Positions 15,964-41,424 of a stretch of 56,534 bases of DNA are shown one piece after another. Both the position numbers and the translations under genes were made by a program. Where the stretch lies: NCBI GenBank assembly GCA_020847715.1, contig JADLBM010000012.1, positions 1 through 56,534 of the forward strand, written 5' to 3'. Under the pieces are notes generated by a model. That model saw only the letters and a list, made by a program, of their open reading frames with translations. It was not told where the DNA came from and did no database searches. Numbering within the stretch: the first letter of the stretch is position 1; every line of letters begins with the position of its first letter. The stretch is from Candidatus Yanofskybacteria bacterium. GTDB lineage: Bacteria > Patescibacteriota > Minisyncoccia > 2-02-FULL-40-12 > GWA2-44-9.

Positions 15964-17982
15964 CTAACTCCGGAAGTCCATTGGATCGCGCCCGCTCGTG
16001 ATTGTTTCCACCTCGCGGCGCTTGAAGGAAGCCGAGCGCGTATACGACACATACAGGAGCGTCATAATCGCTGACACCAGAAGAGCCGCCAGAACGGCAT
16101 CGCCAGGCCCCGTCTGCACGGTGCCAACCTGGCCCACTGCTCGATTCACAAGAACCGTAACCTGCCCGGTCCGAGCGCCGACACCGTCTGCGGTCGCCTG
16201 CACGCTAATAATCGCCTGAGACTGTCCGGTGGGGAATGACGCGCTCTGTACCGACGCCCGGAATCGCACGACCGCCTCTTGGCCGGGGCCGAGGGCGCCA
16301 ACTGCGAGGCCTCCGGTTGTGACAGAATCAACGGACGAAGGAGTCCCGTTCACCGACGTTGAACCAGCAACATAGGCAAGACCGGATGGAAGCGCCGCCC
16401 GCACGACCGCATTCCTCACAATGTCGGCATTCGCGGGAGCACTCGACACTCGCGCAATCACTTCCACCTGTTGATTTCCGGTCACCGATACCGTAGCCGC
16501 CTCGGCGCTCCCCGTGGACGCGTTCCTACCAGAGACGGTAAACCCGATGTCTCCTCCGACAGGGGAGGTGGTAGCAACTTGAATGGCAACATTCGTGCTC
16601 ATCTGGCCGAACCAACCCACCAACCCTTGGTTCATTTGCCACTGGAAATTATATGTCCCGGGCTGGGTCGGAGCGGTAATCGAGAACACAAAGGTTGCAT
16701 CTTGTCCGGGTTGAATGGGAGCGCTCGGGATTGGCACAAATCCAATGCCCCACGTGGTGTTGTCTGCTGGATTTTGACTCTTGATGCGATAGGCGTTGCC
16801 GTAGTCTCCGGGACTCCCAATCTTGTCCCACGCCTTCGTTCCGGTGTTACGGAAGGTGAGCGTCACCTGTGCGGTCGCGCCCGGAGCCATCGTCGCCGGA
16901 ACATTCTGGGAAATAAACTGCGCGTTGTTTCCAGTCCCAGCAGGCGTAGCCGTTGCGGTAACAGTAGCGGTCGGGGTCGCCGTTGCCGTTGCAGTAGCTG
17001 TCGGGGTTGCTGTGGCGCCCCCACAGTTCACGCCATTCGTCGTTACAATATATGAATTTGTCGTTCGGGTATCCGGACGGTACTTCGCCCAGTACTCATA
17101 GGTTTTGTTTGCCTGCACCAGAGAGTCTACATACTCCCAGTATGCCCCCCTGTCTACCGGTACCAGCTCCTGCATCTGCGTAGTCACCCCATCAACGCGC
17201 TTGTTCATACCATTACTGTCGGGAGTCTGACTTCCAGGGGGAGGAAGCTTTGACCAGCGAAGCGTGATGCGTGGCGTTGCGCCGCCAGTGCAGAATCCCG
17301 CGATGGTCCCTGCCGCAGGCGCATTCACATCCGGCGTGCCAGTTGGCGACACCACCGGAGTCGGCGTGCCAGTTGTTGCACCAATAATCTTCGAGCAGGT
17401 CAACGATGTGTAGCCGCGAGACCCATCGATACACCGAGCGATATGCCCCCAGAATGTAGCTCCGCTCGCCGGAGGGGATGCACGGTGCTCTTGGAACCAA
17501 GAATCAGCAAATCCATCCGTGCGATTACACCAATCCGCTTCGGTCGTAGGAACCGTCGCCCAGCTCCACTTTGTGTAATCGTCAACATGTGCCGGATTCT
17601 CAGAGAAAAGCAGGTTGTGCTCCGTGTCGTATTTCGCACCTCCCGTCCGAACTGCATACGCAAGGCTGCCGAGGCGATTACACTTCGGCGGCTGATTCGG
17701 ACAAAAGACCGTGCCAAAACACCCCTGCTTCTGGGAGTCGAACTCGTACACGCCGCCTCCAGGAGCGGGGGACCATATCTGAACATATCCAGTCGGGATT
17801 GGCTCAGCAGCAAAAAAGCGACCAATCTCGAATGTAAAGCCGAGACGGGCCCAAACGATAAGCAAAATACTAAAGACCGTGATACCACCGAGCATAACTA
17901 CGCGGTTCGCTCGATAAAACACACCCACCGCACTCGCGTTCGCTGCAACACGGTCTCGAATCCGCTGGAATAATTCGTTCAT
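15964..17982 (-). CDS. Surface protein E: N-terminal anchor motif, FN3-like and NBR1-like Ig domains, DUF11 repeat, VQTGPGD sorting signal
   Basis: N-terminus ...LGFTFEIGRFFAAE. TA/TP linker. The F..Q.VP..M..G...W...PG.Y.FQWQM segment resembles an NBR1-type Ig domain. C-terminus VQTGPGD + TM + YTRS..KRRE...DFRS. Confidence 0.8.
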   Translation of the reverse strand: MNELFQRIRDRVAANASAVGVFYRANRVVMLGGITVFSILLIVWARLGFTFEIGRFFAAEPIPTGYVQIWSPAPGGGVYEFDSQKQGCFGTVFCPNQPPKCNRLGSLAYAVRTGGAKYDTEHNLLFSENPAHVDDYTKWSWATVPTTEADWCNRTDGFADSWFQEHRASPPASGATFWGHIARCIDGSRGYTSLTCSKIIGATTGTPTPVVSPTGTPDVNAPAAGTIAGFCTGGATPRITLRWSKLPPPGSQTPDSNGMNKRVDGVTTQMQELVPVDRGAYWEYVDSLVQANKTYEYWAKYRPDTRTTNSYIVTTNGVNCGGATATPTATATATATPTATVTATATPAGTGNNAQFISQNVPATMAPGATAQVTLTFRNTGTKAWDKIGSPGDYGNAYRIKSQNPADNTTWGIGFVPIPSAPIQPGQDATFVFSITAPTQPGTYNFQWQMNQGLVGWFGQMSTNVAIQVATTSPVGGDIGFTVSGRNASTGSAEAATVSVTGNQQVEVIARVSSAPANADIVRNAVVRAALPSGLAYVAGSTSVNGTPSSVDSVTTGGLAVGALGPGQEAVVRFRASVQSASFPTGQSQAIISVQATADGVGARTGQVTVLVNRAVGQVGTVQTGPGDAVLAALLVSAIMTLLYVSYTRSASFKRREVETITSGRDPMDFRS

Positions 17983-17985
17983 GGG

Positions 17986-20304
17986 TTAGCGCCGGAAGTC
18001 GAACAGATCCTTGTCGTCATGGGCGCCCTTCGCAAGCGCTCCCGCCTCGTGACGACGATACGCATCGGTGCTCGTGTATCCGACATATAACAAGGTAATA
18101 ATCGCGGAAACGATGAGCGCAAGAAGCGTTGACTCGCCGGGACCGGTCGGCACTTGTGTAACAGGAGTCGTCGGGGTTGTGATAATGACCGGAAGCTGTG
18201 CGGTAAGAGTTCCGATACCGTCTGCGCTCGCTTGGGCCGTGTTCAGCACCGTTGTAGTTCCCGCAGGAAGCTGGCTCGCCACCGCAACACGTGCGGAGAG
18301 AAGTACGGTGACCTCTTGGCCGACCGCAAGCGTCCCGAGACTGAGTCCACTACTCGTGAGACTGTCGGGGGCAGGGGAGCCATTCACACGCACCGAACCG
18401 GCCAGTGCGGTCATGCCCTGAGGCACGATATCGCGAAGAATCACATTTGTGAGCGGTGCATTCGAGGTGTTGCGGACTCGAAGAATGAATTCGACGGTCT
18501 CTGCCGGAGAGGCGTAGACCGGCGACGCCTCGCCAGTTTGGCCACGGCTCGTGTTCCGCCCCATCTTCACGAGTGACATGCTGAGATTCTGGGATGCGTT
18601 CACGACATTCACGAAAGCAACGTCGTTCACCTCAGAAACATTTGAACCGCGCGCGTATCCGGTGTTCGTCATGACGGTCGATCCCTGCGAGAAGAATCCT
18701 GCGGCCGCAACGGACGCGCGGAATCGAATGGTCACGGTCCTTCCAGATGCGAGATCGCCGAGATTCAGTCCCGATGCAACAATGCCGTCTGCGGCAGGCG
18801 CCCCATCAATGGTCGTCGAACCTGGGATATAGGTGAGCCCAGCGGGCAAACTATCACGAACCGTCGCGGATGTGACGGCGCCAACTCCGACCGAAGAGAC
18901 GCGCAAAGAGAACTCGACCGTGTCCGAGGGGTTTGCGTTAACAGAATCGGTCTCTCCGCTTCCCTGAGTAACATTCCGCACAAGTTTCTGAAGTGTCAGC
19001 GCGGGAGCAACAGGCGTTGGCGTCGCGCTCGCGGTAGGAGTTGGTGTTAGCGTAACGCTCGCGGTCGGCGTCGGGGTAGTCGAAGGTGTTGGGGTTGGCG
19101 CAGGATTCACCACGACGGTGCATGCGGCCATATTGCCGCCACTCGCGACAACAACCACTTTCGTTCCTGGCGTTGCGAATGTTACTGCGTAGGATGCTCC
19201 GGTCGCGCTGGATGACACGCCTCCGATTGTGTACCACGCATACATTCCAGTCCCACCGGAAGCAGTGGCGTGCGCCACCGCACCGGTCACCACCATTTGC
19301 GTCGTCGGAGAACAGACGACTGGCGGCAACACGCTTCCCGTGGGCGTAGGCGTCGGAGTTGCACTCGTCGTCGGGGTCGGTGTTATTGTGACGGTCGGCG
19401 TAGGAGTCGGAGATGGAGGAGTGCTTCGTGTCGGAGCAGGGGAGGTTGTTGGGGCAACGCAGTTTGTGCCGTAATCGATAACTGCACCGAGCGCAAGCCC
19501 GCCACCAGAATCGCGGCACTCACCGGTCGCTTCATTCTTGAAGCAACCATCGATCTGAACGCGTCCGCACGTATAGCGATTCGCGTTGTAAGTGACGGTA
19601 ACCTGATGATGGGACCCGGGAGCAAAGCTCGCGTTCGTCTTCCCGATATTCACCGCAGTCCCTGCTGTCGCAGAGCACCCTTTCGTATCGTTGTGGAAAC
19701 CATTCGCAACAACGGTGTAGGTATCGGTGCTTCGATTGTACACGTCCCACGTCTGAGACATGTCGCCGTTCGCGGGTCCCTGGCACGCCTCTGTTGTAAG
19801 ATTCCCGCCTACAACTTTCCAGCAGATGCCTCCGCCCCAGTCATTGTAGCCAGCAGGACACCCAACCGTCGTCGGGAGGCAGTCGTCATTTGAGGCGCAC
19901 TGATCATCCCCAGGGCCATTAATAATGACACAGGCATTATTGGCATTGCATTCGCTGTGCTGCTCAAGAACAGTCGTCGTCGGAGTTGGCGATGGAGCAC
20001 ACCCGCCGCCAACGCACGGATCGCCATCATTACAGTCTTCGCCGCCGACGTCAGGATTCAGAAATCCATCATCGTCACAATCGTGGTCCGGAAGACAGGT
20101 CCACTGTTCTGGAGGAAGAGGACAGGAGGTGCACCCCGGATCACCGACGGTGCATGCGAAGAAGCGGTTTACATCTAGCGTAAAACCAGCCCTCCACCAG
20201 AGATAACCGAACGTAGAGAGAACGATCAACCCCGCAACAAGGAAAAAGAGGCGGTTCGCCTTAAGGAATCCACCGAATCGTACAAAAAATCCTTGAGAAT
20301 CCAT
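17986..20304 (-). CDS. Surface protein D: N-terminal anchor motif, Cys/Asp-rich region, PT linkers, Cys-bounded module, three DUF11-like repeats, VPTGPGE sorting signal
   Basis: Start placed at ATG 20304, 2 nt after the upstream stop; the ORF track extends it to 20328. Motifs AGFTLDVNRFFAC and the C-terminus VPTGPGE + TM + YTST..YRRHE...DFRR. Confidence 0.8.
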   Translation of the reverse strand: MDSQGFFVRFGGFLKANRLFFLVAGLIVLSTFGYLWWRAGFTLDVNRFFACTVGDPGCTSCPLPPEQWTCLPDHDCDDDGFLNPDVGGEDCNDGDPCVGGGCAPSPTPTTTVLEQHSECNANNACVIINGPGDDQCASNDDCLPTTVGCPAGYNDWGGGICWKVVGGNLTTEACQGPANGDMSQTWDVYNRSTDTYTVVANGFHNDTKGCSATAGTAVNIGKTNASFAPGSHHQVTVTYNANRYTCGRVQIDGCFKNEATGECRDSGGGLALGAVIDYGTNCVAPTTSPAPTRSTPPSPTPTPTVTITPTPTTSATPTPTPTGSVLPPVVCSPTTQMVVTGAVAHATASGGTGMYAWYTIGGVSSSATGASYAVTFATPGTKVVVVASGGNMAACTVVVNPAPTPTPSTTPTPTASVTLTPTPTASATPTPVAPALTLQKLVRNVTQGSGETDSVNANPSDTVEFSLRVSSVGVGAVTSATVRDSLPAGLTYIPGSTTIDGAPAADGIVASGLNLGDLASGRTVTIRFRASVAAAGFFSQGSTVMTNTGYARGSNVSEVNDVAFVNVVNASQNLSMSLVKMGRNTSRGQTGEASPVYASPAETVEFILRVRNTSNAPLTNVILRDIVPQGMTALAGSVRVNGSPAPDSLTSSGLSLGTLAVGQEVTVLLSARVAVASQLPAGTTTVLNTAQASADGIGTLTAQLPVIITTPTTPVTQVPTGPGESTLLALIVSAIITLLYVGYTSTDAYRRHEAGALAKGAHDDKDLFDFRR

Positions 20305-20306
20305 TC

Positions 20307-20801
20307 TTATTGAACAATAACCGTACACACTGCGATATCTTTGGCGGTAGAACCGTCATTTCTCCCGCTCTGCACAAGAACCTTCTTGGTTCCAGTGGTG
20401 GTATAGCGAACCGCGAACTGCGCCCCCTGTCGGTTTGTGTCGGGTGCAGATGACTCCGGACCAAGCCACGTATAGATGCCGTCTCCTCCAGCCACGGTGA
20501 GGTTCGCAAGAACACCCACGGCGACTGTCTGGGTCGCGGGGGAGCAAGAAGCAACAGCTCGATTTGTTCCCGTGGGCGGACACCATCCTCCAGCGGGCTC
20601 TGCGATGTCGCACGGAGGAGTCGCGTCAAGACATGCCGGGCGCGTCTGGCATGCCGTCGTTGTTACAACATCAGCGGCAGGCTCTGCGGCAAAGAATTTC
20701 ATGAACTCAAGACTAAATCCCGAGTACCACCAGATGCTAATGGCGCCGACAACAAGCATCAGGACTCCTCCCAGAAGCATCTTTCGAACGGTGGCATTCA
20801 T
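20307..20801 (-). CDS. Small paralogue C: N-terminal anchor motif plus one Cys-bounded Ig-like module, no sorting signal
   Basis: MNATVRKMLLGGVLMLVVGAISIWWYSGFSLEFMKFFAAE, then the module CSPATQTV...AVCTVIV. 164 aa. Confidence 0.7.
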   Translation of the reverse strand: MNATVRKMLLGGVLMLVVGAISIWWYSGFSLEFMKFFAAEPAADVVTTTACQTRPACLDATPPCDIAEPAGGWCPPTGTNRAVASCSPATQTVAVGVLANLTVAGGDGIYTWLGPESSAPDTNRQGAQFAVRYTTTGTKKVLVQSGRNDGSTAKDIAVCTVIVQ

Positions 20802-20873
20802 ATACGCACGTGCAATCTCAGTTGATTATAGTACACCGCTTGAACACTTCACAGGGACATATCCACATTTTCT

Positions 20874-22571
20874 CTACGCGCGGAAGTCGAGTGGGCCCTG
20901 GTCCTCACTCGCTTTTGTCGCCTCGCGGCGACGATACAGCGGTGAGCGCGTGTATGCCGTGTAGAGCAGGGTGAGCGTCGCTGCAAACATAAGCGCCGCA
21001 ATAACCGCATCTCCGGGCCCTGTCTGCACGCCTCCCGCGCCGCCAACGACGCCTCCACCCGTGCCAGCTCCTCCCTGAGTTGAACCGTACACCGTGACGC
21101 TCGTATCGCCGATAACATCCGCCAGCTGTTGGGCGGTCGCCACGGCGCGCGGTCGGAACATCTGCGGCCCACTGGGAAGCAGGGAAGTCTGATCTGCAAG
21201 AGCAGACCATCGCACCGTGACGACATCTCCGGCCTCAAGGCGACCTAAGAATAGGCCCGAAGTGGTAATGGTATCGATGAGAACCGGCTGACCCTCGACG
21301 GTCGTCGAGCCCTGTCGGTATGACATGCCAGATGGGATCTCATCGCGAACCAGAAGGCCGCTCGTGGGTCCACCTCCACTGTTCGTGATTCGAATGACAA
21401 ATTCCACGATCTGCCCCGGATTCACAGTGACTGCGGTCCGCTCGCTCGGATCTCCCACCGAAAGATTCCGCGCATACTTCGCCACCGTAAGCGCGGCGCT
21501 ACCCGTTTGCGTCGTGTCGTCCGTCACTGTCACTGAGCATCGAGCACTCTGCGCTCCACTGCTGACTCGAACGTTTTTGACGCCGGTAGTCGCATATGTA
21601 ATCGACACGAATTCATTCCCACCTTCTTCAAGGAGTCCACCGCCCGTGATATCCCATTGGTATACGCCCGTACCGCCACTTGCCTGTAGAAGCGCTCTTC
21701 CGGAACGCTGCACAGTCTGCGTTGTAGGCGAACAAACGAGCGGAGGCGGGGGAGGGGTCGGAGCAGTTGAGATAGTTGTGCCGATAGGAGTCGTTGACGC
21801 GCCGCCGCACAACACAGTGTTCGAAACAATGCTAGGACTAAACTTCACGCGATACTGGTAGGTTCGTCCGGCCGCAGCCGAGACATCGGTGTACGTCCCA
21901 ATACCAAAGGTATTCCAGCATCCGCCCTCACTGAAAACATCGGTCCAGCTCCCTCCGTTGATATCCATGCGCTGAATAACGTTTTGCATCGCGCGACCCG
22001 ACAACGGGTTCGTCCAAGTCAGAACATTGACGGAACCACACTGGACCGCCAGCGCGGGCGTTGACGGAGTTCCCGCATATGCGGGGCATGAATCGCCGCC
22101 TCCACCCGCGCCGCCGCCATCACACCCAGACCCACCGGCACGCGGATCGCATACTCGGATACAGAAATCGTCTCCGAATGCTGTCCAGTTCTTCGGACAA
22201 TCTTGCGGCTTCTCAACGCACATCTTCGGATACCGCTCCCACACAACACCGCTGTCAGGCTCGGGCCTGCGGTCTGTCATGTACAGGAACTCTCCCGTAC
22301 CCGTTGTCCCCCTATATGTCGGTAGGCACCCTTCATCGAGCGCATAGTCGTACTCCGGCTCTCGATTGCACACGAAATCCGGCACCCAGCTTGGCGGCTG
22401 GCTTGCGCGTCCGGGACATCGCTCTTCAGCAGCGAAGAACCTCCCGATCTCCAACTGAAAACTTCCGTAGACACCCCATATCACAAGCACCATCGCCAGG
22501 ACGGCAGCAGTAACCACAATCCACGCCTGTGGACTTTCACGGAAGAGCCGGCGAATGACTTCCCAATCCAT
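20874..22571 (-). CDS. Surface protein B: N-terminal anchor motif, Cys-rich and FN3-like regions, Cys-bounded module, DUF11 repeat, VQTGPGD sorting signal
   Basis: GSFQLEIGRFFAAE, PPPPP linker, CSPTTQTV...ARCSVTV module. C-terminus VQTGPGD + TM + YTRS..YRRRE...LDFRA. Confidence 0.8.
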   Translation of the reverse strand: MDWEVIRRLFRESPQAWIVVTAAVLAMVLVIWGVYGSFQLEIGRFFAAEERCPGRASQPPSWVPDFVCNREPEYDYALDEGCLPTYRGTTGTGEFLYMTDRRPEPDSGVVWERYPKMCVEKPQDCPKNWTAFGDDFCIRVCDPRAGGSGCDGGGAGGGGDSCPAYAGTPSTPALAVQCGSVNVLTWTNPLSGRAMQNVIQRMDINGGSWTDVFSEGGCWNTFGIGTYTDVSAAAGRTYQYRVKFSPSIVSNTVLCGGASTTPIGTTISTAPTPPPPPLVCSPTTQTVQRSGRALLQASGGTGVYQWDITGGGLLEEGGNEFVSITYATTGVKNVRVSSGAQSARCSVTVTDDTTQTGSAALTVAKYARNLSVGDPSERTAVTVNPGQIVEFVIRITNSGGGPTSGLLVRDEIPSGMSYRQGSTTVEGQPVLIDTITTSGLFLGRLEAGDVVTVRWSALADQTSLLPSGPQMFRPRAVATAQQLADVIGDTSVTVYGSTQGGAGTGGGVVGGAGGVQTGPGDAVIAALMFAATLTLLYTAYTRSPLYRRREATKASEDQGPLDFRA

Positions 22572-22620
22572 AGCAATAGTATATCAGCTTCCGCGCCCAC
22601 AGAGCACGGAGCCCTGTGTG

Positions 22621-23277
22621 TTACATCTGCACTTGCACCGCCTGGACGGCAATGCGCTTGTAATTTGTACCGACCGGATAGCAACTGATAAGCACAAGGC
22701 TACTGCCCAAAGCGTTCTCCATTTCGCTCAGACGGCTATCCTCTGAGAAAGGATTAAAAATGATTGCCTGCTTCATCTCATATACAAATGAACGATTATC
22801 CTCATACTGCACATAGAATCGATCTCCGGGTTTCAGGCGACTCAAGAGCGCGAACACCGCTCCATACTCTCCCTTATACCAAGGGTACGCTGAGCTGTGC
22901 CCAAGAATGACCGCCGCGCCGGGGTTTCCGGGTTTCGCGGTATCACTGTAGTGCACGACGCCATCTTCCAGACGCTTGTAGATGGCGTCGTTGTTGTTTG
23001 GCGCATTGAAAACGATAGGCGCGCGAACACCGATGCTGTCGATGACCAGCGTTGCCCGATCGGGTAGCGGTTTTGCCTGCACGGCACCCGCGAGCGGGAG
23101 GAGGCGAATGGCATCTCCAAGCGTGTCTCGAGTTCGGATTGTTCCGGGAGCTACAAGATACTGTGCGCTCTTTGCGACAAAACGAATATTCAGCAGCAGG
23201 AACGCCGCAGTGAATGTTACGGCGAAGATAAACACGAGCCGGAGCCAGATGGTTCGGTTCCGATTGTGAAGTCGCAT
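22621..23277 (-). CDS. Sortase family transpeptidase (218 aa)
   Basis: Start at ATG 23277 (MRLHNRN...) with an N-terminal TM. Catalytic His in AAVILGHSS, Cys in LVLISCYP, downstream Arg (NYKRIAV). Embedded among its presumed substrates. Confidence 0.85.
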   Translation of the reverse strand: MRLHNRNRTIWLRLVFIFAVTFTAAFLLLNIRFVAKSAQYLVAPGTIRTRDTLGDAIRLLPLAGAVQAKPLPDRATLVIDSIGVRAPIVFNAPNNNDAIYKRLEDGVVHYSDTAKPGNPGAAVILGHSSAYPWYKGEYGAVFALLSRLKPGDRFYVQYEDNRSFVYEMKQAIIFNPFSEDSRLSEMENALGSSLVLISCYPVGTNYKRIAVQAVQVQM

Positions 23278-23342
23278 GTCACCAGTATACCAAACAACAA
23301 CATCCCCGGTATGGGGATGTTGTTGTTTTCGGACACTCAGAC

Positions 23343-25049
23343 CTACTTGAGGAAGTTGAGTCCGGCAGACCGCGAGAGTCGTCCGACCTCCGCGAGTGCC
23401 GCGCGGCGACCGAAGGCCAGTGAGCGCGTGTACACGGCGTAGCCACCCGTCACCAATGCGGCGATGAGCAAGGCAAGCCACAGAGAGTCCGCGGGACCCG
23501 TCTGGACGCCTGATGCGTTCGTAATGCTCACATGCTGTCCGAGAGTAATCGGAAGCTGAGCAGACATCGTGCCAACCGTATCTGCTCGGACCTGCGCAGT
23601 CGCGTTGACTACCACCTGGCCCCACGAGGGGACGGATGCTTCGTCGACGCGAACCGACAGCTTAATTACCGTATCAGTAGAAGGCGAGAGCGTACCGACA
23701 GAGATACCAGCGCTCGTGATGCCGTCCGAAACCGCATACCCATTCAGTGTTGTCGAGCCTGCAATGTAGTTCACGCCGCTCGGGAGAAGCTCCGTCACGA
23801 ACGCGTTGTACAATGACGAGCCATTCATTGAGCGAACACGAAGGATGAGGTCGAGCGTGTCTCCGCCACGGGCGCGAACGCTTGCGTTCTCACCACTCTG
23901 CCCGCGCGAGACGTTGCGTCCGGTCTGGCGCAGATCGAGTCGTGCATTCGGATCGGTGTACGGGTACGCCGTCGGCGTCGGGGTCCACGCGCTACCATTC
24001 AGGACGAGCGTGGTAGTTCGAGCCTGCATATTCGCGTTCTCTGCAGTCACGGTCACTGAGTTGTAGAGCGACTGCCAGTTCGTGTATGCGGCATCAACAG
24101 TCGCATCGAACTTCACGATATAAGTGCGGTTCGCGGTCAGCGTACCGAGGCTCAGACCGCCGTTTGTGATGCCGTCGGTGTACCACGTTCCGTCGATATT
24201 CGTAGTTCCAGACAGGTAGCGAACGAACGAGGGGAGTGCGTCCGTGATGCGAACGTTGGTGAGCTGATAGGCACCGGTCGTGATGCGCGCAATGAACTGC
24301 ACGCGATCGCTCCCGTAGACATTCACCGAAGAACCCTCTCCTCCGCGCGTAACATTCCGGACGGTGTGGTCAACCGCAAGTGAGCCATACGGATACGCGG
24401 TCGGCGTCGGAGTCCAGTAGGTGGAGCCGTACACATTCACCGCGCACGAAGCCGACTGACCGGCGCTCGTGACCGTGACCGTACGATTCACCGTTGTGGA
24501 GCCATAGTTGTAGAAACGAGTCGAGAAGACGGAACCCCAACCGGACGACGGGTTGCCGTCAGTCGTGGTCCAGTAGTAGGAACCGTTACCACCCCATGCA
24601 TTCAGAGAGACCACATCACCCGAGGTGACACTCGAGTACGACGGTGCGCACTGCAGGGTCGTCCATGGGGTCGGCGTCGGGGTCCAGGTGTACGTCGGCG
24701 TAGCGCCATACACATACACCGTGCACGCGGCGGTCTGGTAACCGTCAGAAACGGTTACCGTGCGCGTCTCCGAACCGGTCACATAGAACCGGGTACCAAA
24801 TGTCGCACCATACCCATAACTCGGATTTCCACCAACCGCAGACCATGTCAGCTGGTTCGTAGTGTTCGAGGAATAGGCAGTAAAGCTCACGAAATCTCCG
24901 CTCGAAACGGACTGAACGGACGGCGCACACTGCAGGGAACCGTACCACTGCGTGGACTGCGCCTGGGCATCAACGACACCAAAGGCGCCACCGACCGAGG
25001 ACGCCAGAAGGGCCGTGAAAAGCCCGAAAATCAAGGCTTTCTTGGACAT
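23343..25049 (-). CDS. Surface protein A: classical signal peptide, two Cys-bounded modules, two DUF11-like repeats, VQTGPAD sorting signal
   Basis: Signal peptide MSKKALIFGLFTALLASSVGGAFGVVDAQA. Two LQCAPS...C.V.VYG modules. C-terminus VQTGPAD + TM + YTRS..FGRR...LNFLK. Confidence 0.8.
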   Translation of the reverse strand: MSKKALIFGLFTALLASSVGGAFGVVDAQAQSTQWYGSLQCAPSVQSVSSGDFVSFTAYSSNTTNQLTWSAVGGNPSYGYGATFGTRFYVTGSETRTVTVSDGYQTAACTVYVYGATPTYTWTPTPTPWTTLQCAPSYSSVTSGDVVSLNAWGGNGSYYWTTTDGNPSSGWGSVFSTRFYNYGSTTVNRTVTVTSAGQSASCAVNVYGSTYWTPTPTAYPYGSLAVDHTVRNVTRGGEGSSVNVYGSDRVQFIARITTGAYQLTNVRITDALPSFVRYLSGTTNIDGTWYTDGITNGGLSLGTLTANRTYIVKFDATVDAAYTNWQSLYNSVTVTAENANMQARTTTLVLNGSAWTPTPTAYPYTDPNARLDLRQTGRNVSRGQSGENASVRARGGDTLDLILRVRSMNGSSLYNAFVTELLPSGVNYIAGSTTLNGYAVSDGITSAGISVGTLSPSTDTVIKLSVRVDEASVPSWGQVVVNATAQVRADTVGTMSAQLPITLGQHVSITNASGVQTGPADSLWLALLIAALVTGGYAVYTRSLAFGRRAALAEVGRLSRSAGLNFLK

Positions 25050-25333: not shown

Positions 25334-25405
25334 GCTCTCGTCGTTCAATGGATAGGACGCAAGCTTGCGGAGCTTGTAATGTAGGTTCGATTCCTACCGA
25401 GAGCA
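25334..25405 (+). tRNA. tRNA-Arg (anticodon GCG by manual fold), no encoded CCA
   Basis: Cloverleaf: acceptor GCTCTCG/CGAGAGC, D stem GTTC/GGAC, anticodon stem CAAGC/GCTTG with loop TTGCGGA, T arm GTAGG-TTCGATT-CCTAC. Confidence 0.8.
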
Positions 25406-25443
25406 CAAAAACAAATGGCCCCCTTGCGGGGCCTTTTGTTTTT
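25406..25443 (+). terminator. Rho-independent (bidirectional-looking) terminator
   Basis: GGCCCC/GGGGCC stem extended by an AAAAACAAA/TTTGTTTTT A/T-rich tract. Confidence 0.7.
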
Positions 25444-25452
25444 CATGCTTGA

Positions 25453-25614
25453 GGTAGGAATCGAACGGGGAGAAGCGGAGCGAGGCCCGGCCAAGTATGG
25501 GCGGGCCGATGTGAGCGCCAGTCGCATATCCGGTGGATATGCGACTGCTCCCCAGTACAACGAAGGCTCACCGCGACGGCGGGGAGCTGAGGCGAAATTC
25601 CTACCGAGAGTGCA
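25453..25614 (+). ncRNA. tRNA-Arg-linked satellite element (structured, about 162 nt)
   Basis: It starts with GGTAGGAATCGAAC, the reverse complement of tRNA 25385-25398. Near its 3' end, 25597-25610 (ATTCCTACCGAGAG) is a direct copy of tRNA 25390-25403. The ends pair (9 bp). Inside is a perfect 11-bp hairpin at 25520-25546. Transcription is unproven. Confidence 0.5.
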
Positions 25615-25630
25615 GGGTGATTCCTACCCT

Positions 25631-26206
25631 CTACGGCCTCCGAATGAAGACATCGAGAAGGGGGGTCGGATGCTCGCTTTCCACTATATACTGTGACAAC
25701 ACTGCGCGGATTTCCTGAGGGTCCTGCTCTCCCAGCGGAAGACGTAGTGTCGGGATGTGCCATCGCCGCGTCTGGAGGCTGAGCTCAACGGTATCGTCCG
25801 GCATTCGATGGATATCGAACGAGGCGAGATCGGCGTGAGCAATGCGTCGTCCATCAATCTCGACGCCGCGGCCGTCCACAGCTACGCTCACCGGCCTGCT
25901 GAGTCGCTCTCGAATCTCCCATGTTGCGGCGCCCAAAAGCGTGACGATCATGACTGCCACACTCGACTGCCACCACGCGACCGCACCCCCGATGAACACG
26001 AGCGTCGCCATGAGCATGTAGTGGCGCTGCCATGCACGCCCCTGAAGGGGATGGTGCGCTTCCCATGCAATTGCCTGTGCAGCGAATTCGTTGAATGACG
26101 GGGGTACAGCATCCGCGGAAACCACTTCCGGCGTCATCACATCCGCAGTTGTAGATTCGTCGACACTAACAGGTTCCGGATTCTTGAGGTCAAGCACGTT
26201 GCTCAT
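25631..26206 (-). CDS. Hypothetical two-TM membrane protein (191 aa)
   Basis: Acidic N-terminus, a TM pair (MLMATLVFIGGAVAWW / VAVMIVTLLGAATW), and a soluble C-terminal domain. No motif recognised. Confidence 0.55.
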   Translation of the reverse strand: MSNVLDLKNPEPVSVDESTTADVMTPEVVSADAVPPSFNEFAAQAIAWEAHHPLQGRAWQRHYMLMATLVFIGGAVAWWQSSVAVMIVTLLGAATWEIRERLSRPVSVAVDGRGVEIDGRRIAHADLASFDIHRMPDDTVELSLQTRRWHIPTLRLPLGEQDPQEIRAVLSQYIVESEHPTPLLDVFIRRP

Positions 26207-26243
26207 GCGGGTAGTATACCATCATTTTTCTACGCCCCAGCTC

Positions 26244-26495
26244 CTACCGATGAGGGCAGCCGGCCCAGCAGCACGGTCGCCGCATGCCTTTGCGCATCTT
26301 ATCGAGACCGACTGCAATGCGCCGCTCACGTGTTTTCGATTGCTTCGCGGAAGTCACCCAGCAGATCCATTCGTTGCGAGCCAGCGGAGTGATATCTGCC
26401 CACACGCTCCGAGCTTTCGAATCCGATTCGATCGCTGCGCGGAGGTCCGGCGGCGCCCTATGTACTGCGCCGTTTTTTGTATTCGTCTTTTTCAT
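26244..26495 (-). CDS. YdeI/OmpD-associated family protein (83 aa)
   Basis: Start at ATG 26495 (MKKTNTK...). The pattern PPDLRAAI....VWADITPLARNEWICWVTSAKQSKTRERRI is typical of the YdeI-type domain. Confidence 0.65.
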   Translation of the reverse strand: MKKTNTKNGAVHRAPPDLRAAIESDSKARSVWADITPLARNEWICWVTSAKQSKTRERRIAVGLDKMRKGMRRPCCWAGCPHR

Positions 26496-26511
26496 AAAGA
26501 ATGCGCGCTCT

Positions 26512-26635
26512 TGGCGGTGGGAGTAGGATTCACCCGCCACTCTCGGCGCGTCCGTCGGCGCGCCTCGGTTCTGGGCTCCAGCCCTCGCGGTCGCCCCTTC
26601 TGGCGCGACAGCGCTCCGGGCTTCGAATCCTACGC
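26512..26635 (-). ncRNA. tRNA-Ser(UGA)-linked satellite element (about 124 nt)
   Basis: Its 5' end GTAGGATTCGAA is an inverted copy of the T-arm. Its 3' end is a 20-nt direct copy of the tRNA 3' end including CCA (26512-26531 equals 26685-26704). It shares a 33-nt core with 27002-27035. Confidence 0.55.
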
Positions 26636-26647
26636 TCCAGCTATAGT

Positions 26648-26683
26648 ATCACCCCAGACTGCCACATGGCAGTCTGGGGTGAT
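26648..26683 (-). terminator. 17-bp perfect inverted repeat immediately 3' of tRNA-Ser(UGA)
   Basis: ATCACCCCAGACTGCCA-CA-TGGCAGTCTGGGGTGAT. No clear U-tract, so it may be a processing or termination hairpin. Confidence 0.4.
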
Positions 26684-26684
26684 A

Positions 26685-26774
26685 TGGCGGTGGGAGTAGG
26701 ATTCGAACCTACGGTACGGTTTCCCGTACAGCGGTTTTCAAGACCGCCGCTTTAGACCACTCAGCCATCCCACC
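26685..26774 (-). tRNA. tRNA-Ser (anticodon UGA), type II with long variable arm, CCA encoded
   Basis: Acceptor GGTGGGA/TCCCACC, anticodon stem GCGGT/ACCGC with loop CTTGAAA, T arm GTAGG-TTCGAAT-CCTAC, ends GCCA. Confidence 0.85.
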
Positions 26775-26797
26775 CAATGCGCCAGTGTATCGTGAAA

Positions 26798-26826
26798 TTG
26801 CCAATAACTCAAGAAAATGCTATATT
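26798..26826 (+). promoter_or_regulatory. Sigma70-like promoter for tRNA-Ser(CGA)
   Basis: TTGCCA (26798-26803), 17-nt spacer ending TGc, TATATT (26821-26826). A divergent TTGAGT-17-TACACT can be read on the other strand for tRNA-Ser(UGA). Confidence 0.5.
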
Positions 26827-26843
26827 ATTCCCGCTCCACTCCC

Positions 26844-26930
26844 GGAAGCGTGGCTGAGTGGTTGAAGGCACCACACTCGAAATGTGGCATAGGGGTAACC
26901 CTATCGGAGGTTCGAATCCTCCCGCTTCCG
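26844..26930 (+). tRNA. tRNA-Ser (anticodon CGA), type II, CCA not encoded (ends GCAA)
   Basis: Acceptor GGAAGCG/CGCTTCC, anticodon stem CCACA/TGTGG with loop CTCGAAA, long variable arm, T arm GGAGG-TTCGAAT-CCTCC. Confidence 0.85.
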
Positions 26931-26934
26931 CAAT

Positions 26935-26970
26935 ACCAAAACGGATTGCCGTGTGGTAACCCGTTTTGGT
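26935..26970 (+). terminator. 10-bp hairpin 3' of tRNA-Ser(CGA)
   Basis: ACCAAAACGG / CCGTTTTGGT with a 16-nt loop. The U-tract lies inside the stem only. Confidence 0.4.
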
Positions 26971-26984
26971 GCCGTCGTCGAAAA

Positions 26985-27104
26985 GGGAGGATTCGAAGGA
27001 CGGAGCGATGTCGCGCCAGAAGGGGCGACCGCGAGTCCGTGGTCAGCCCGAGGGTTGTCGACGGACAACCCAAGAGGCGAGACCGAATCCTCCCGCTTCC
27101 GCCA
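26985..27104 (+). ncRNA. tRNA-Ser(CGA)-linked satellite element (120 nt)
   Basis: GGGAGGATTCGAA (26985-26997) is the reverse complement of tRNA 26911-26923. 27084-27102 is a 19-nt direct copy of tRNA 26913-26931, and the element continues 2 nt further to end GCCA (27104). There is an 11-bp closing stem plus two internal hairpins. Confidence 0.55.
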
Positions 27105-27125
27105 GGATTCAGAAAGAGAGGAATC

Positions 27126-27317
27126 GTGACAACGCTACTGCTGGACGACTTGGACGACGACACGCGCCGGCGACTCACCGAGCGCAAGCGGTACTCGTGT
27201 GCACACTGCCAGTACCGGTGGGAGATTCCCGCGCTCCAGAGCTCGACCGAGTGCCCGTCATGCGGCGGCCACTGGATCGTCTTCGACACCGCGCCGGATA
27301 GCCAGCGGGACCCGTGA
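27126..27317 (+). CDS. Small zinc-ribbon protein (63 aa, GTG start)
   Basis: AGAGAGGA SD then GTG. Acidic N-terminus, then CAHC...(16 aa)...CPSC. The stop codon sits in the terminator loop. Confidence 0.5.
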   Translation: MTTLLLDDLDDDTRRRLTERKRYSCAHCQYRWEIPALQSSTECPSCGGHWIVFDTAPDSQRDP

Positions 27318-27332
27318 GGGTCCCGTTTTCTT
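27307..27332 (+). terminator. Rho-independent terminator shared by convergent genes
   Basis: GGGACCC-GTGA-GGGTCCC followed by GTTTTCTT. Confidence 0.7.
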
Positions 27333-28059
27333 AGTAGTAGAGCTCTTTGCGAGGAGGGGAGGCTTTGATGATATCAAATGCCTCCTGCGCAGTATCGACG
27401 AGGTGGTAAAGCTGCATGTCTTCCTTATCGATGGCGCGATATTTCTCGTACACCATGTCGTTGATATAGGAGAGGAGCGGTGTCCAGAATTCTTTGCCAA
27501 CAAGAATGAGCGGAACCGTTTCGCGGTCGACCTTCTTGGTCTGAACCAGCGTCACCATCTCGAAGAACTCGTCGAGCGTCCCGAAGCCGCCGGGGAAAAA
27601 CACGTACGCCTGCGCCGTGTAGAACAGCATCACCTTGCGTACAAAGAAATAGTAGAAGGGCTGCTTCTTGGTGAGGTAGGGGTTCTCCCGCTGCTCGAAC
27701 GGAAGCTTGATGTTGATGCCAATACTTTCGCCACCCGCCTCGAATGCGCCACGGTTGCCACCCTCCATAATGCCCGGCCCGCCACCGGTCACGACGCCAA
27801 TCTTCGCCTTTGCCAGCAACGCACCGAGCTCACGGGCAACTTGGTACCATTTATTACTCTCTTCGAACCGTGCGGAACCGAGAATAGAAATCGTGTTCTT
27901 GTAGTCCGTGACAAACTGCCACCCATCAACGAACTCCGCCATGATGCGGAACACGCGCCAGTGAAAACTGGAGCGGAAGTCGAGCGGCATCTCCTGCGTC
28001 TGCTCCCAGGGGAGCTTGGATGCGGGAACATTGAGTGAGCCTTTTGGATCGTCTCCCAT
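27331..28059 (-). CDS. LOG family protein (TIGR00730-type nucleotide phosphoribohydrolase)
   Basis: Start at ATG 28059 with a GGAGGG SD. Motifs GGGPGIMEGGNRGA and PGGFGTLDEFFE. The ORF-track extension to 28359 runs across two tRNA genes and is not coding. Confidence 0.85.
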   Translation of the reverse strand: MGDDPKGSLNVPASKLPWEQTQEMPLDFRSSFHWRVFRIMAEFVDGWQFVTDYKNTISILGSARFEESNKWYQVARELGALLAKAKIGVVTGGGPGIMEGGNRGAFEAGGESIGINIKLPFEQRENPYLTKKQPFYYFFVRKVMLFYTAQAYVFFPGGFGTLDEFFEMVTLVQTKKVDRETVPLILVGKEFWTPLLSYINDMVYEKYRAIDKEDMQLYHLVDTAQEAFDIIKASPPRKELYY

Positions 28060-28073
28060 TCCCTCCAGTATAT

Positions 28074-28100
28074 CACAGCACCGCCGATGGCGGTGCTGTG
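28074..28100 (-). other. 12-bp perfect hairpin between tRNA-Ala(GGC) and the LOG SD
   Basis: CACAGCACCGCC-GAT-GGCGGTGCTGTG with no U-tract. Possibly a processing site or a partial terminator. Confidence 0.4.
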
Positions 28101-28103
28101 TAG

Positions 28104-28179
28104 TGGTGGACCCAACCGGACTCGAACCGGTCACCTCATCCATGCCATGGATGCGCTCTACCAGATGAGCTATGGGCCC
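28104..28179 (-). tRNA. tRNA-Ala (anticodon GGC), CCA encoded
   Basis: Acceptor GGGCCCA/TGGGTCC with G3:U70, anticodon stem CATCC/GGATG with loop ATGGCAT, ends ACCA. Confidence 0.85.
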
Positions 28180-28230
28180 AAGGCGTCTGGAAAAATAGCA
28201 CGAAAATGGTAGTATCGCAAGGTATTGCCT

Positions 28231-28302
28231 GCCCCCGTAGCTCAACGGATAGAGCAAATTCGTCCTAAGAATGAGATGGGGGTTCGATTCCCTCCGGGGG
28301 CA
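28231..28302 (+). tRNA. tRNA-Arg (anticodon CCU), no CCA
   Basis: Acceptor GCCCCCG/CGGGGGC, D stem GCTC/GAGC, anticodon loop GTCCTAA, T loop TTCGATT. Confidence 0.8.
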
Positions 28303-28388
28303 CACACCTGACCACTCCTCATACTGCAGGAAGTGGCCGGCCAAGTGTCCTGAGCGCATAGACGCGAAGGACTACAGAAAAAATACTT

Positions 28389-29825
28389 ATGCTGGAAATC
28401 CATCCGAAGGTAGGGGAGGTCCTACGGACACTCGAGGAGAACGGCCACCGCGCATATGCGGTGGGTGGCTGCGTGCGCGACATCATGATGGAGCGACATC
28501 CAACCGATTGGGATGTCACCACCGACGCTCGCCCCGAGCGCATCCAAGAGCTGTTCCCCGATAACTTTTACGACAACGCATTTGGAACTGTCACCGTGAA
28601 GACGCGCGACGACGACCCCATCGTGCGCACCATTCAGATTACCCCGTTCCGCATCGAAGGACGGTACACCGACCAGCGGCACCCCGACGAGGTCACATTC
28701 GCGAAAACAATCGAAGAAGACCTCTCGCGCCGTGACTTCACCGTGAACGCAATGGCGATGAGTGCTGACGGGACACTGGTTGACCCCTACGGCGGACGAG
28801 ACGACCTCTCCGCAAAAATAATCCGCGCGGTCGGGGATGCCGATACTCGCATCACGGAAGATGCGCTCCGCATGATGCGCGCGGTTCGATTCGCGACCAC
28901 GCTCGATTTCAGCATTCACGACGACACTCTGCGGGCGCTCACGCGCCACGCCGCACTGCTCGAGCGCATCTCGGCAGAGCGCATTCGCGATGAACTCACA
29001 AAGATCCTGAATGCTCCGCGCGCAATGCATGGCATCCAACTCCTCGAAGATACCGGCCTCCTCCGGTTCATCCTTCCGGAGTTGCGCGAGGGCGTAGGAG
29101 TCGAGCAGAACCTCCACCACATCTACACGGTGTGGGAGCATAATTTGCGCACCATGCACTACGCTGCGCAGAAGGGATATTCATTCCCCGTGCGAATGGC
29201 GTGCCTCCTCCATGATGTGGGGAAGCCGCGCACCAAGCGGGGAGAGGGCCGCCACTGCACGTTCTACGCACACGATGCCGTGGGTGCCACGATGGCTCGA
29301 AAGATCATGGAGCGCCTCAAATACCCCGGCGAGACCGTCGATGCGGTCGTGCGCTTGGTTCGTTACCATATGTTCTACTACAGTGTTGGCGAAGTCACCG
29401 AGTCCTCGGTTCGCCGCCTCATCGCGAACGTCGGGCTCGAACACATTGACGACCTCCTCAGGCTCCGCGAGGGAGATCGCATCGGCTCCGGAACGCCCAA
29501 GGCGGTACCCTATAAACTCCGCCACCTCAAGTACATGATCGACAAGGTCAGCCATGACCCCATTTCAGTAAAGATGCTCAAGGTGAACGGGCAGGATATT
29601 ATGGAAGTCCTCGGAATTCCGCCCGGGCCGAAGATTGGCCTCATCCTCAACACGCTCCTCGCCGAGGCACTCGACGATCCGACCATCAACACCCGCGAGC
29701 TCCTCTTAAAGCGAGCGGGAGAGCTTGATGCGGCATCCGCTGCCGACCTCAAAAGCGCGCTTGAACGCATCGAACAGGCTCGGGATTCGGAAGAGAAGGA
29801 GCGGATGAAGAAATACTACGTGTAA
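28389..29825 (+). CDS. cca: CCA-adding enzyme (tRNA nucleotidyltransferase with HD domain)
   Basis: The GGCVRD motif (AVGGCVRDIMM), RRDFTVNAMA, and HD region LLHDVGKP. 478 aa. Confidence 0.9.
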   Translation: MLEIHPKVGEVLRTLEENGHRAYAVGGCVRDIMMERHPTDWDVTTDARPERIQELFPDNFYDNAFGTVTVKTRDDDPIVRTIQITPFRIEGRYTDQRHPDEVTFAKTIEEDLSRRDFTVNAMAMSADGTLVDPYGGRDDLSAKIIRAVGDADTRITEDALRMMRAVRFATTLDFSIHDDTLRALTRHAALLERISAERIRDELTKILNAPRAMHGIQLLEDTGLLRFILPELREGVGVEQNLHHIYTVWEHNLRTMHYAAQKGYSFPVRMACLLHDVGKPRTKRGEGRHCTFYAHDAVGATMARKIMERLKYPGETVDAVVRLVRYHMFYYSVGEVTESSVRRLIANVGLEHIDDLLRLREGDRIGSGTPKAVPYKLRHLKYMIDKVSHDPISVKMLKVNGQDIMEVLGIPPGPKIGLILNTLLAEALDDPTINTRELLLKRAGELDAASAADLKSALERIEQARDSEEKERMKKYYV

Positions 29826-29854
29826 CCAAAAGACCTCTCGGAGGGGTCTTTTGG
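29826..29854 (+). terminator. Rho-independent terminator of cca
   Basis: CCAAAAGACC-TCTCGGAG-GGGTCTTTTGG starts directly after the stop. Confidence 0.7.
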
Positions 29855-29859
29855 TATCT

Positions 29860-29979
29860 GTCGGGCTGCTGGGAATCCCGTACGCGTCAAACCTCGCCGT
29901 CGCTCGGTTCGCGCTTCCGGCCGGGGCTCGCGGCGCCTCCTACTGTCGACGTATCGCTCCGCCCTTCGCTTCCCGGCAG
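29860..29979 (-). ncRNA. tRNA-Pro-linked satellite element (120 nt, more degenerate)
   Basis: 18-nt direct copy of the tRNA-Pro 3' part (29860-29877 equals 30031-30048). Degenerate inverted T-arm CTGCCGGGAAGCGAA. Shares the core ...CGAAG-GGGC-GGAGCGAT...CGCGAG-CCC with the Ser elements. Confidence 0.45.
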
Positions 29980-29993
29980 GCAATCTGCGCGCA

Positions 29994-30024
29994 ACAAAAA
30001 GACCCCACTGCGGGGTCTTTTTGT
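29994..30024 (-). terminator. Rho-independent terminator after tRNA-Pro
   Basis: AAAAAGACCCC-GCAG-GGGGTCTTTTT on the minus strand. Confidence 0.7.
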
Positions 30025-30031
30025 TTATGGG

Positions 30032-30102
30032 TCGGGCTGCTGGGAATCGAACCCAGTCTTTATGAACCCGAATCATACGTACTACCGGTATACTACAGCC
30101 CG
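30032..30102 (-). tRNA. tRNA-Pro (anticodon CGG), no CCA
   Basis: C1:G72 acceptor CGGGCTG/CAGCCCG with A73, anticodon stem TATGA/TCATA with loop TTCGGGT, T arm CTGGG-TTCGATT-CCCAG. Confidence 0.8.
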
Positions 30103-30146
30103 CACCGCTACGATGCGAACTCGACAATACCACAGAAATACCAGAA

Positions 30147-31249: not shown

Positions 31250-31338
31250 AGTATATGACGCACAATACCTTCACGTCTTACCGAAGGCAACGCCAGAGAG
31301 CGGAGTACTCCGCTCTCTGGCGTATGCGCGTATCGCTC

Positions 31339-32031: not shown

Positions 32032-32137
32032 GCGTATAGTATATACAATACTGCGTACACCAAGTATGACGGCTCCACGGAAGATTCCTTACGCCTCTGG
32101 CAAAAACCGGCGTTTTATGGTATGTTTCCTCCGATTT

Positions 32138-32210
32138 GGGCCCATAGCTCAGCTGGTAGAGCGCGTCATTCGCATTGACGAGGTCAGGAGTTCGAATCTC
32201 CTTGGGTCCA
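32138..32210 (+). tRNA. tRNA-Ala (anticodon CGC), no CCA
   Basis: Acceptor GGGCCCA/TGGGTCC with G3:U70, anticodon stem CGTCA/TGACG with loop TTCGCAT. Confidence 0.85.
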
Positions 32211-32244
32211 CACCTGAAAACCAGTTCGCAATCGCGGTCACCCC

Positions 32245-34987: not shown

Positions 34988-35042
34988 ATATACACACGAA
35001 GCCTCGATTTTCTGCGCAGAAAGAATGCTAGAATGAGGCCAT

Positions 35043-41421: not shown

Positions 41422-41424
41422 TCC

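Follow-up and report, generated by a model that had tools for sequence, protein, structure and literature searches.

Proteins of the LPXTG type, processed by housekeeping sortases of class A or E such as Staphylococcus aureus SrtA, end in a tripartite signal composed of a motif with Thr-Gly, a hydrophobic helix of about 20 residues and basic residues. The tails of canonical sortase signals span roughly 5-10 residues. In Streptococcus pyogenes, the pilins carry EVPTG, QVPTG, VPPTG or VVPTG and are cut between Thr and Gly by the class B sortase Spy0129 (PMC3019223). More than half of the bacteria of the candidate phyla radiation have a sortase family (Méheust et al., PMC6744442); full-text literature searches returned neither a description of sorting signals in this radiation nor a report of VQTGP, VPTGP or V-x-T-G serving as a sortase signal. 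Here we describe a sortase operon in a 56,534-nucleotide stretch of Candidatus Yanofskybacteria DNA (contig JADLBM010000012.1, hereafter the window), in which four proteins share a long C-terminal signal built around V-x-T-G. Judging from its sequence features, this is probably a surface-protein sorting operon, whose sortase would attach isopeptide-domain adhesin-like proteins with immunoglobulin (Ig)-like and CLIPPER domains to the cell surface. The locus represents an undescribed sortase-signal variant with a paired sortase in Patescibacteria; its tail and an N-terminal leader (N-leader) go beyond a mere variant of the motif, and the kind of system is a known one.

The operon is tightly packed on the minus strand, running from 25049 to 15964 in the order P6, sortase, P4, P3, P2 and P1, with intergenic gaps of 65, 49, 72, 2 and 3 nt, and its six genes are probably co-transcribed (Table 1). 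P6, P4, P2 and P1 follow a common C-terminal plan: V(Q/P)TGP(G/A)(D/E), a hydrophobic helix of 20 residues ending in Y-x-x-Y-T, a basic cluster, and a tail whose end contains (D/N)F. From the motif Gly to the C-terminus there are 48-52 residues, and 24-28 lie past the helix. A first-pass annotation, made by a model from the sequence alone, had already described these products with their motif, helix of about 20 residues and basic cluster, and the translations agree with it, including the Glu that follows the cluster in three of the four tails (KRRE, RRHE and RRRE, versus GRRA in P6) and the long tail that ends in DFR plus Ser, Arg or Ala in three proteins and in LNFLK in the fourth. When the window is translated in six frames, the heptapeptide appears at four places, all of them these C-termini, compared with a mean of 0.01 occurrences in 100 shuffles; within the window, a profile hidden Markov model (HMM) of the tails matched the P1, P2, P4 and P6 open reading frames (ORFs) only. 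In the AlphaFold2 (AF2) model of P6 (34-sequence alignment, predicted local distance difference test score (pLDDT) 77.9), four β-sandwich domains are joined by TPTPTP linkers; after them come a disordered stretch with VQTG (residues 508-517), a helix (519-541) and, in the tail, a second helix (544-560).

To follow the signal beyond this genome, as the first-pass annotation had proposed, the four-tail profile was searched exhaustively against 1.84 billion protein cluster representatives; a word-indexed homologue search with the four-tail alignment, which had returned two proteins, was superseded by this search. At E≤1e-3 there were 247 matching representatives, of which 164 also passed E≤1e-10. 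Among the best 150 of the 247, the match ended at most 9 residues from the C-terminus in 149 and at most 1 residue from it in 140. Across 199 unique tails, the motif columns read V 83% (position -3, otherwise Ile), x = P/Q/S/K/A, T 98%, G 100%, P 87%, G 76% and D/E 87%. The helix columns show A 89% and L 80%, then L-L-Y 95%, two free positions, Y 98%, T 87%, (R/H/S) and (T/S) 98%, and the basic cluster reads x, x, (F/Y) 88%, (R/K) 80%, (R/K) 88%, (R/H/K) 94% and E 82%. About 10-15 variable residues later the tail closes with (D/N) 96%, F 94%, (R/K) 74%, usually one more residue, and the stop, giving a median of 24 residues beyond the helix. Over the last 50 codons of four orthologue pairs, taken from the window and the related locus L001, 97 synonymous versus 27 nonsynonymous codon differences were counted, so the tail is translated and under purifying selection. 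Conservation of the tail as an overlapping ribosome-binding site of the next gene was considered and rejected, since the four genes have different downstream contexts and most of the changes are synonymous. As a separate observation, the signal is internal, about 50 and about 140 residues before the end, in L012 (3736-7986) and in protein P0213, which may stem from read-through, a gene fusion or faulty assembly.

The tails are not covered by any model of Pfam or of NCBIfam (June 2026). The best score against an existing TIGRFAM or NCBIfam sorting-signal model came from TIGR01167 LPXTG_anchor, a profile of 34 positions in all, which the P6 tail approached with 15.5 bits against a cut-off of 15.9 and which the P1, P2 and P4 tails did not match; a known model describing the signal, which the first-pass annotation had envisaged as a refutation, was not found. 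Its statement that no known motif matches V-x-T-G was overstated: the S. pyogenes pilin signals include (E/Q)VPTG, and the QVPTG of P2 is identical to one of them, so Val at -3 with cleavage between Thr and Gly has a precedent (PMC3019223).

Compared with LPXTG proteins and their housekeeping sortases, the system shares the tripartite end, the T-G motif, a helix of similar length with basic residues behind it, and acidic residues soon after Gly, here conserved as D/E. The enzymes are alike as well, both being Cys transpeptidases with His, Cys and Arg and an N-terminal anchor, with one sortase for several substrates, at least one of which is encoded apart. The differences lie in the sequence of the signal, which has Val or Ile instead of Pro at -3, no Leu at -4, a conserved Pro-Gly-(Asp/Glu) after the Gly, the Y-x-x-Y-T end of the helix, and the far longer tail with its conserved (D/N)F end.

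The association of signal and sortase was assessed in both directions. In the forward test, the four-tail HMM was iterated on six-frame ORFs of 54 genomic loci that had been retrieved with the sortase alignment. In 29 of the 29 loci whose sortase is at least 40% identical to that of the window, an ORF with the signal directly precedes the sortase gene in the same orientation. Loci of the clade with ≥57-67% sortase identity contain 2-5 more signal-bearing ORFs, which follow the sortase and are arranged as in the window; loci farther away (sortase 40-61% identical; L010, L011, L015-L018, L020-L028) contain one, the upstream ORF, where the flank is available. In the reverse test, which drew on a metagenome scan with the tail alignment and confirmed six loci using one narrow peptide pattern, loci retrieved by the signal alone carried this sortase in all four cases with enough flank. 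Of three representative substrates that returned a contig, two lie in a sortase operon and the contig of the third is too short to judge. An orphan substrate of 1075 amino acids (aa) was found beside MurJ, more than 7 kb from any sortase (L061, 6888-10175), and contig 1 of the same assembly holds the operon (L005), which points to a many-to-one relation, as with other sorting signals. No LPXTG-like end was present on any other candidate substrate in the loci scanned for one (L030-L054). Given the co-occurrence in all 29 related loci, the four proteins are very probably substrates of this sortase, as had been proposed from the single genome. The pairing of a lineage-specific C-terminal domain with one enzyme, findable by co-occurrence, resembles the PEP-CTERM/exosortase, PGF-CTERM/archaeosortase, GlyGly-CTERM/rhombosortase and MYXO-CTERM/myxosortase systems; unlike those, the enzyme here is a true sortase and not an intramembrane protease, and their tails are short.

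Further out in the family, at 33-35% sortase identity, the substrates encoded after the enzyme carry GA(A/S)T(V/I)xTG and a helix (L034 1879-4578, L041 10542-12680, L044 10625-13132, L046 10667-12892). These end in a conserved tail of about 47 residues, YC(R/K)xRE(E/T)KL..E...YF(K/R)..L.(F/L)...K.VY(W/F/L), unlike the (D/N)F tails, and in L037 and L040 (sortase below 40% identity) VQTGPAE is combined with other tails. Long, clade-specific cytoplasmic tails therefore appear to be general to this sortase family. In distant clades, a further gene was seen between the upstream substrate and the sortase (L011 672-1607, L013 9034-9990, L014 9068-9985, L016-L021, L026 8990-9988, L028 8462-9466). Its product of about 300 aa has an N-terminal membrane helix, a domain that looks by eye like CAP/SCP (YkwD-like) and two C-terminal helices; the window has no such gene.

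The sortase gene is the only one in the whole window, and the His, Cys and Arg motifs recognised in the first-pass annotation belong to a bona fide domain: the protein matches Pfam Sortase (PF04203) over residues 77-215 with 72.7 bits against a cut-off of 26.6, and the catalytic residues on the eight-stranded barrel, H127 (LGHSS), C199 (SCYPVG) and R208 (RIAV), do not vary among 17 homologues and persist to about 33% identity. It also scores 40.7 on TIGR01076 against a cut-off of 39.35. All matching NCBIfam class models stayed below their cut-offs (score/cut-off: class F 43.5/166, SrtD 38.2/140, class D 37.8/165, class C 35.1/160, class E 33/160, class GN 26.9/158), and no class A or class B model was among the matches at E≤1. 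The closest solved relative by sequence is Actinomyces oris SrtC1 (27 bits). When the AF2 model (pLDDT 78.8) was submitted to Foldseek, more than 100 PDB chains were retrieved at E≤1e-3, and all 50 among the matches listed are sortases. The best fold matches are class C enzymes (2xwg, 5k9a, 3o0p; E=2e-11, TM-score ~0.5-0.6), with class A, D and E structures nearly as good. Class C sortases, exemplified by A. oris SrtC1 (2xwg) and SrtC1 of group B Streptococcus, are thus the nearest in both sequence and fold, and several substrates with Ig-like isopeptide domains are likewise encoded in the operon. Unlike them, the enzyme has no DP(F/W/Y) lid motif in residues 43-72 and no C-terminal membrane anchor, ending at residue 218 directly after the last strand of the AF2 model (208-216).

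The 835 sortase homologues retrieved at E≤1e-5 belong to assemblies of Yanofskybacteria, Paceibacterota and Patescibacteria, as do the related loci. The lineage is that of the Parcubacteria group, within the candidate phyla radiation as the first-pass annotation had guessed. Two signatures extend family-wide to about 33% identity, namely LGHSSAYPWYxGxYGS(V/I)F at the catalytic His and (L/F)NxRF(V/I)xA just past the membrane anchor. In the loop before the Cys strand, F(N/S)P(F/L) is found in nearly all members of the ≥40% clade, which is the one paired with (D/N)F tails, and the loop differs in distant members. Based on these shared motifs, we assign the enzyme to a patescibacterial "GHSSAYPWY" family.

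The substrates are also alike at their other end. P1-P4 begin with an N-leader in which a basic start is followed by some 20 residues of membrane helix and by W...GF(S/T)(L/F)(E/D)xx(R/K)FFA, whereas P6 starts with an ordinary signal peptide. The N-leader has no Pfam or NCBIfam match, and no A-x-A-like, i.e. obvious signal-peptidase, site is present in that of P1-P4. It recurs in 37 ORFs of related loci (L001-L029) and in the orphan substrate, thus accompanying the C-terminal signal even on a protein encoded far from the sortase; both ends are combined on P1, P2, P4 and the orphan. A special N-leader paired with a C-terminal sortase signal recalls the YSIRK/GXXS signal peptides of staphylococcal and streptococcal LPXTG proteins (PMC5962339), although the sequences are unrelated and GF(S/T)(L/F)(E/D)xx(R/K)FFA stands here after the hydrophobic segment, not before it. 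GF(S/T)L(E/D) as a prepilin-peptidase site was rejected, as the motif follows the hydrophobic segment and would sit outside the membrane. P3-type proteins, 158-232 aa long, consist of the leader and one two-Cys Ig-like domain, have no C-terminal signal, and are conserved in L001, L002, L005 and L029; such a protein might serve as acceptor, terminator or chaperone.

The ectodomains are those of adhesin-like proteins. P2, P6 and P4 exceed the 24.6-bit cut-off of DUF11 (PF01345) with 66.2, 37.9 and 27.8 bits and P1 stays below it at 16.5; the TIGR01451 domain is likewise above cut-off in P2, P4 and P6 and weak only in P1. DUF11 was renamed CLIPPER, a CnaA-like isopeptide domain that builds the stalks of fibrillar adhesins (PMC12617251). 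P2 additionally matches the isopeptide domain RrgB_K2N_iso_D2 with 26.8 bits, below the 30-bit cut-off. Homologues of the substrates are named "DUF11 domain-containing", "TIGR01451 repeat" or "hypothetical" in public records. PDB sequence searches with P1, P2 and P4 found nothing, and Foldseek with the P6 model returned generic strings of Ig-like domains alone with TM-scores <0.2, from which no pilin inference was drawn. Across many samples and sortase identities down to 40%, the signal-bearing proteins range from about 130 to 1075 aa with varied ectodomains, and some distant substrates have long Pro/Thr/Ser-rich spacers before the signal. In the domain preceding the signal, no Lys is conserved at 70% or more among 60 substrates; K463 is nearly invariant only among P6-type proteins.

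The surface-sorting model builds on the gene anatomy, on a signal that is conserved, C-terminal and strictly paired with the sortase clade, on the fold and triad of the sortase, and on peptidoglycan genes in the window. P6 would be exported via its ordinary signal peptide and P1-P4 via the family-specific N-leader. The C-terminal helix and basic cluster would then arrest export, leaving V-x-T-G-P-G-(D/E) about five residues outside the membrane, where, we infer, the membrane-anchored sortase (His127/Cys199/Arg208) would cut between Thr and Gly. The Thr carboxyl would be moved to an amine, most likely of a peptidoglycan precursor and possibly of a neighbouring subunit, so that fibrillar-adhesin-like proteins with Ig-like/CLIPPER (DUF11) domains would be displayed on the surface. 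A peptidoglycan acceptor is made plausible by two genes of the window, both on the minus strand, which encode a class A penicillin-binding protein with transglycosylase and transpeptidase domains (50478-52646) and a protein with LysM and an M23 peptidase (2041-3237); the pair suggests that the organism makes and remodels peptidoglycan.

The tail of 24-28 residues, (F/Y)(R/K)(R/K)(R/H/K)E ... (D/N)F(R/K), would be part of the signal in this model. We infer that it most likely acts before cleavage, in retention or positioning, or after it, as a cytoplasmic handle to clear the left-over peptide. To begin degrading a membrane protein, FtsH requires a cytosolic tail some 20 residues long. Docking of the tail on the cytoplasmic stub of the sortase (MRLHxRxR) was rejected as a general explanation, as the stub is absent in the 40-57% identity clade that keeps the (D/N)F end. 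Genes for a conserved cytoplasmic partner, of the kind that the first-pass annotation had suggested along with an extra recognition step, did not turn up in the related loci, where the recurrent neighbours are RecG, a 191-aa membrane protein and tRNAs, probably all plain synteny and none specific to the system.

Some points weigh against surface sorting as described. The sortase fails every curated class model, so no characterised enzyme can serve as a guide to its specificity or acceptor. Without an obvious signal-peptidase site, mature P1-P4 might stay membrane-bound at the N-terminus. In addition, conservation is unexpected in a tail that cleavage would discard, and would better fit a part that is kept in the mature protein or read by something.

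If the acceptor were the amine of the next subunit, the products would form a covalent heteromeric fibre, pilus-like, with P6, P4, P2 and P1 as subunits and P3 as terminal acceptor or membrane base. We regard such a fibre as possible, though on present evidence unlikely; it is plausibly a variant of surface sorting and not its opposite. As in pilus islands, including the S. pyogenes FCT pilus, a dedicated sortase is encoded amid its own substrates in conserved order, and signal-less P3-type proteins are conserved in four loci; distant loci (40-61% sortase identity), however, contain a single, upstream signal-bearing ORF where the flank is available, and the orphan substrate lies far from its operon. 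The nearest solved sortases by sequence and fold are the pilus-specific class C enzymes (2xwg, 5k9a, 3o0p), but the class C lid and C-terminal anchor are missing and the class C model gives 35 bits against a 160-bit cut-off. P2 carries the QVPTG signal of the S. pyogenes T3 pilin, with Val at -3 and Pro at -2 before the scissile bond (PMC3019223), and has the weak RrgB isopeptide-domain match. In contrast to the FCT system and Spy0129, position -2 is here mostly Q, S, K or A and not P, no class B model matches at E≤1, the tails are long and conserved, an N-leader is present, and the operon has no SipA-like gene. The Pro/Thr-rich spacers of some substrates resemble those of wall-anchored proteins, and no Lys reaches 70% conservation in the pre-signal domain of the 60 substrates.

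A more elaborate version, which we consider doubtful, is a pathway of GHSSAYPWY sortases in which both ends of the substrate are read. Substrates would carry the N-leader and the V-x-T-G signal, and the long, clade-specific tail of that signal with its (D/N)F end would be read by a cytoplasmic or membrane factor, for instance part of the translocon or an AAA protease clearing the cleaved peptide. The pathway would gate or order the assembly of host-attachment fibres, with P3-type proteins as membrane-anchored acceptors.

It is improbable that helix and tail form a permanent membrane anchor, the tail working in the mature protein, V-x-T-G being a mere juxtamembrane linker and the sortase having other targets. 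Such an anchor would account for a cytoplasmic tail that is strongly conserved to its very last residues, is predicted to be helical in the AF2 model of P6, and is even longer, about 47 residues, in distant loci. It leaves aside that Thr (98%) and Gly (100%) stand at the canonical distance from the helix, that the signal adjoins the sortase in 29 of 29 loci, that L030-L054 offered no LPXTG-like alternative substrates, and that the tail HMM matched only the four ORFs in the window. Recent within-genome duplication of one gene, with no signal function of the shared ends, is hardly credible: DUF11 and Ig-like modules are indeed common to the four proteins, but the same end of 55-60 residues is found on 199 unique tails with different ectodomains and sortase identities down to 40%, and the ends are under purifying selection.

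The sorting of surface proteins by such a system would matter in several respects. LPXTG models and survey regular expressions miss the substrates of candidate-phyla-radiation sortases, leaving an annotation blind spot; for example, a survey of isopeptide domains annotated sortase motifs by regular expressions, by which V-x-T-G would be missed (PMC12617251). With a defined profile of the signal, one could predict from sequence the surface proteome of these ultra-small bacteria, which are probably attached to hosts, and pick out adhesin candidates. Textbook accounts of the sortase mechanism leave the long conserved tail and the paired N-leader unexplained, and a partner that reads the tail, if there is one, would add a new step, a cytoplasmic checkpoint, to sortase-dependent sorting. 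A sortase with V-x-T-G-P specificity could also serve protein ligation orthogonal to existing sortases.

The gene calls require two comments. For P2, the ORF lister gives a GTG start at 20328, and the ATG at 20304 was used for the length of 772 aa. Extension of the sortase ORF to 23625 by the same lister was rejected, as 120 homologues of 217-230 aa align from MRLH... onward. The first-pass annotation had placed the sortase in an operon with five large exported proteins; the genes are as it described, on the minus strand, except that P3, at 164 aa, is not large.

Table 1. Positions of operon genes, signals and leaders in the window (positions of the P3-type orthologues refer to the named loci).
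Feature	Position	Strand	Description
Promoter-like site 5' of P6	25105..25134	-	TTGACT-18-TATAAT, extended TG; 11/12 consensus positions; consensus match alone
P6, upstream substrate, 568 aa	23343..25049	-	Sec-type signal peptide, four Ig-like domains (two DUF11/CLIPPER), C-terminal signal
P6 sorting signal	23343..23507	-	VQTGPAD ... YAVYTRS ... GRRA ... LNFLK; helix ending YAVYT, then RSLAFGRRAALAEVGRLSRSAGLNFLK
Sortase, 218 aa	22621..23277	-	N-terminal membrane anchor and catalytic domain, H127/C199/R208; Pfam Sortase match
P4, substrate, 565 aa	20874..22571	-	N-leader, Cys-rich and Ig-like domains, one DUF11, C-terminal signal
P4 N-leader	22422..22571	-	Basic start, membrane helix, then GSFQLEIGRFFAAE
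P4 sorting signal	20874..21029	-	VQTGPGD ... YTAYTRS ... RRRE ... LDFRA; helix ending YTAYT, then RSPLYRRREATKASEDQGPLDFRA
P3, 164 aa	20307..20801	-	N-leader (residues 1-40, 20682-20801) and one two-Cys Ig-like domain; no C-terminal signal
P2, substrate, 772 aa from ATG	17986..20304	-	N-leader, Cys-rich region, Ig-like domain, two DUF11, C-terminal signal
P2 N-leader	20155..20304	-	Membrane helix, then GFTLDVNRFFA
P2 sorting signal	17986..18153	-	(Q)VPTGPGE ... YVGYTST ... RRHE ... FDFRR; helix ending YVGYT, then STDAYRRHEAGALAKGAHDDKDLFDFRR
P1, substrate, 672 aa	15964..17982	-	N-leader, NBR1-like Ig domain, sub-cut-off DUF11 match, C-terminal signal
P1 N-leader	17803..17982	-	Membrane helix, then GFTFEIGRFFAAE
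P1 sorting signal	15964..16119	-	VQTGPGD ... YVSYTRS ... KRRE ... MDFRS; helix ending YVSYT, then RSASFKRREVETITSGRDPMDFRS
P3-type orthologues	L001 12417-12932, L002 6795-7493, L005 12704-13249, L029 6189-6665		

Directly upstream of the operon, seven tRNA genes lie on both strands at 25334-32211 (Arg-GCG, Ser-TGA, Ser-CGA, Ala-GGC, Arg-CCT, Pro-CGG, Ala-CGC). The 191-aa protein mentioned above is encoded at 25631-26206 on the minus strand; it is a predicted membrane protein with no family match, and its homologues stand beside the operon in 11 related loci, probably by plain synteny, since RecG is conserved there as well; no other unknown neighbour recurs. Two secreted-looking proteins without V-x-T-G are encoded at 35037-35960 (plus strand) and 31339-32088 (minus strand), one with a bacterial TSP3 repeat and the other with a Ser/Pro/Thr-rich C-terminus. 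A VirB4/TraG-like P-loop ATPase at 41422-43167 on the plus strand (TraG P-loop, AAA_10 and weak CagE/TrbE/VirB matches) suggests a type IV secretion or conjugation-like system nearby. At 47406-50186 on the plus strand, two ORFs are DnaA- and DnaN-like by length and order alone and lie near a change of GC-skew sign at about 46-50 kb, which may mark the chromosomal replication origin.

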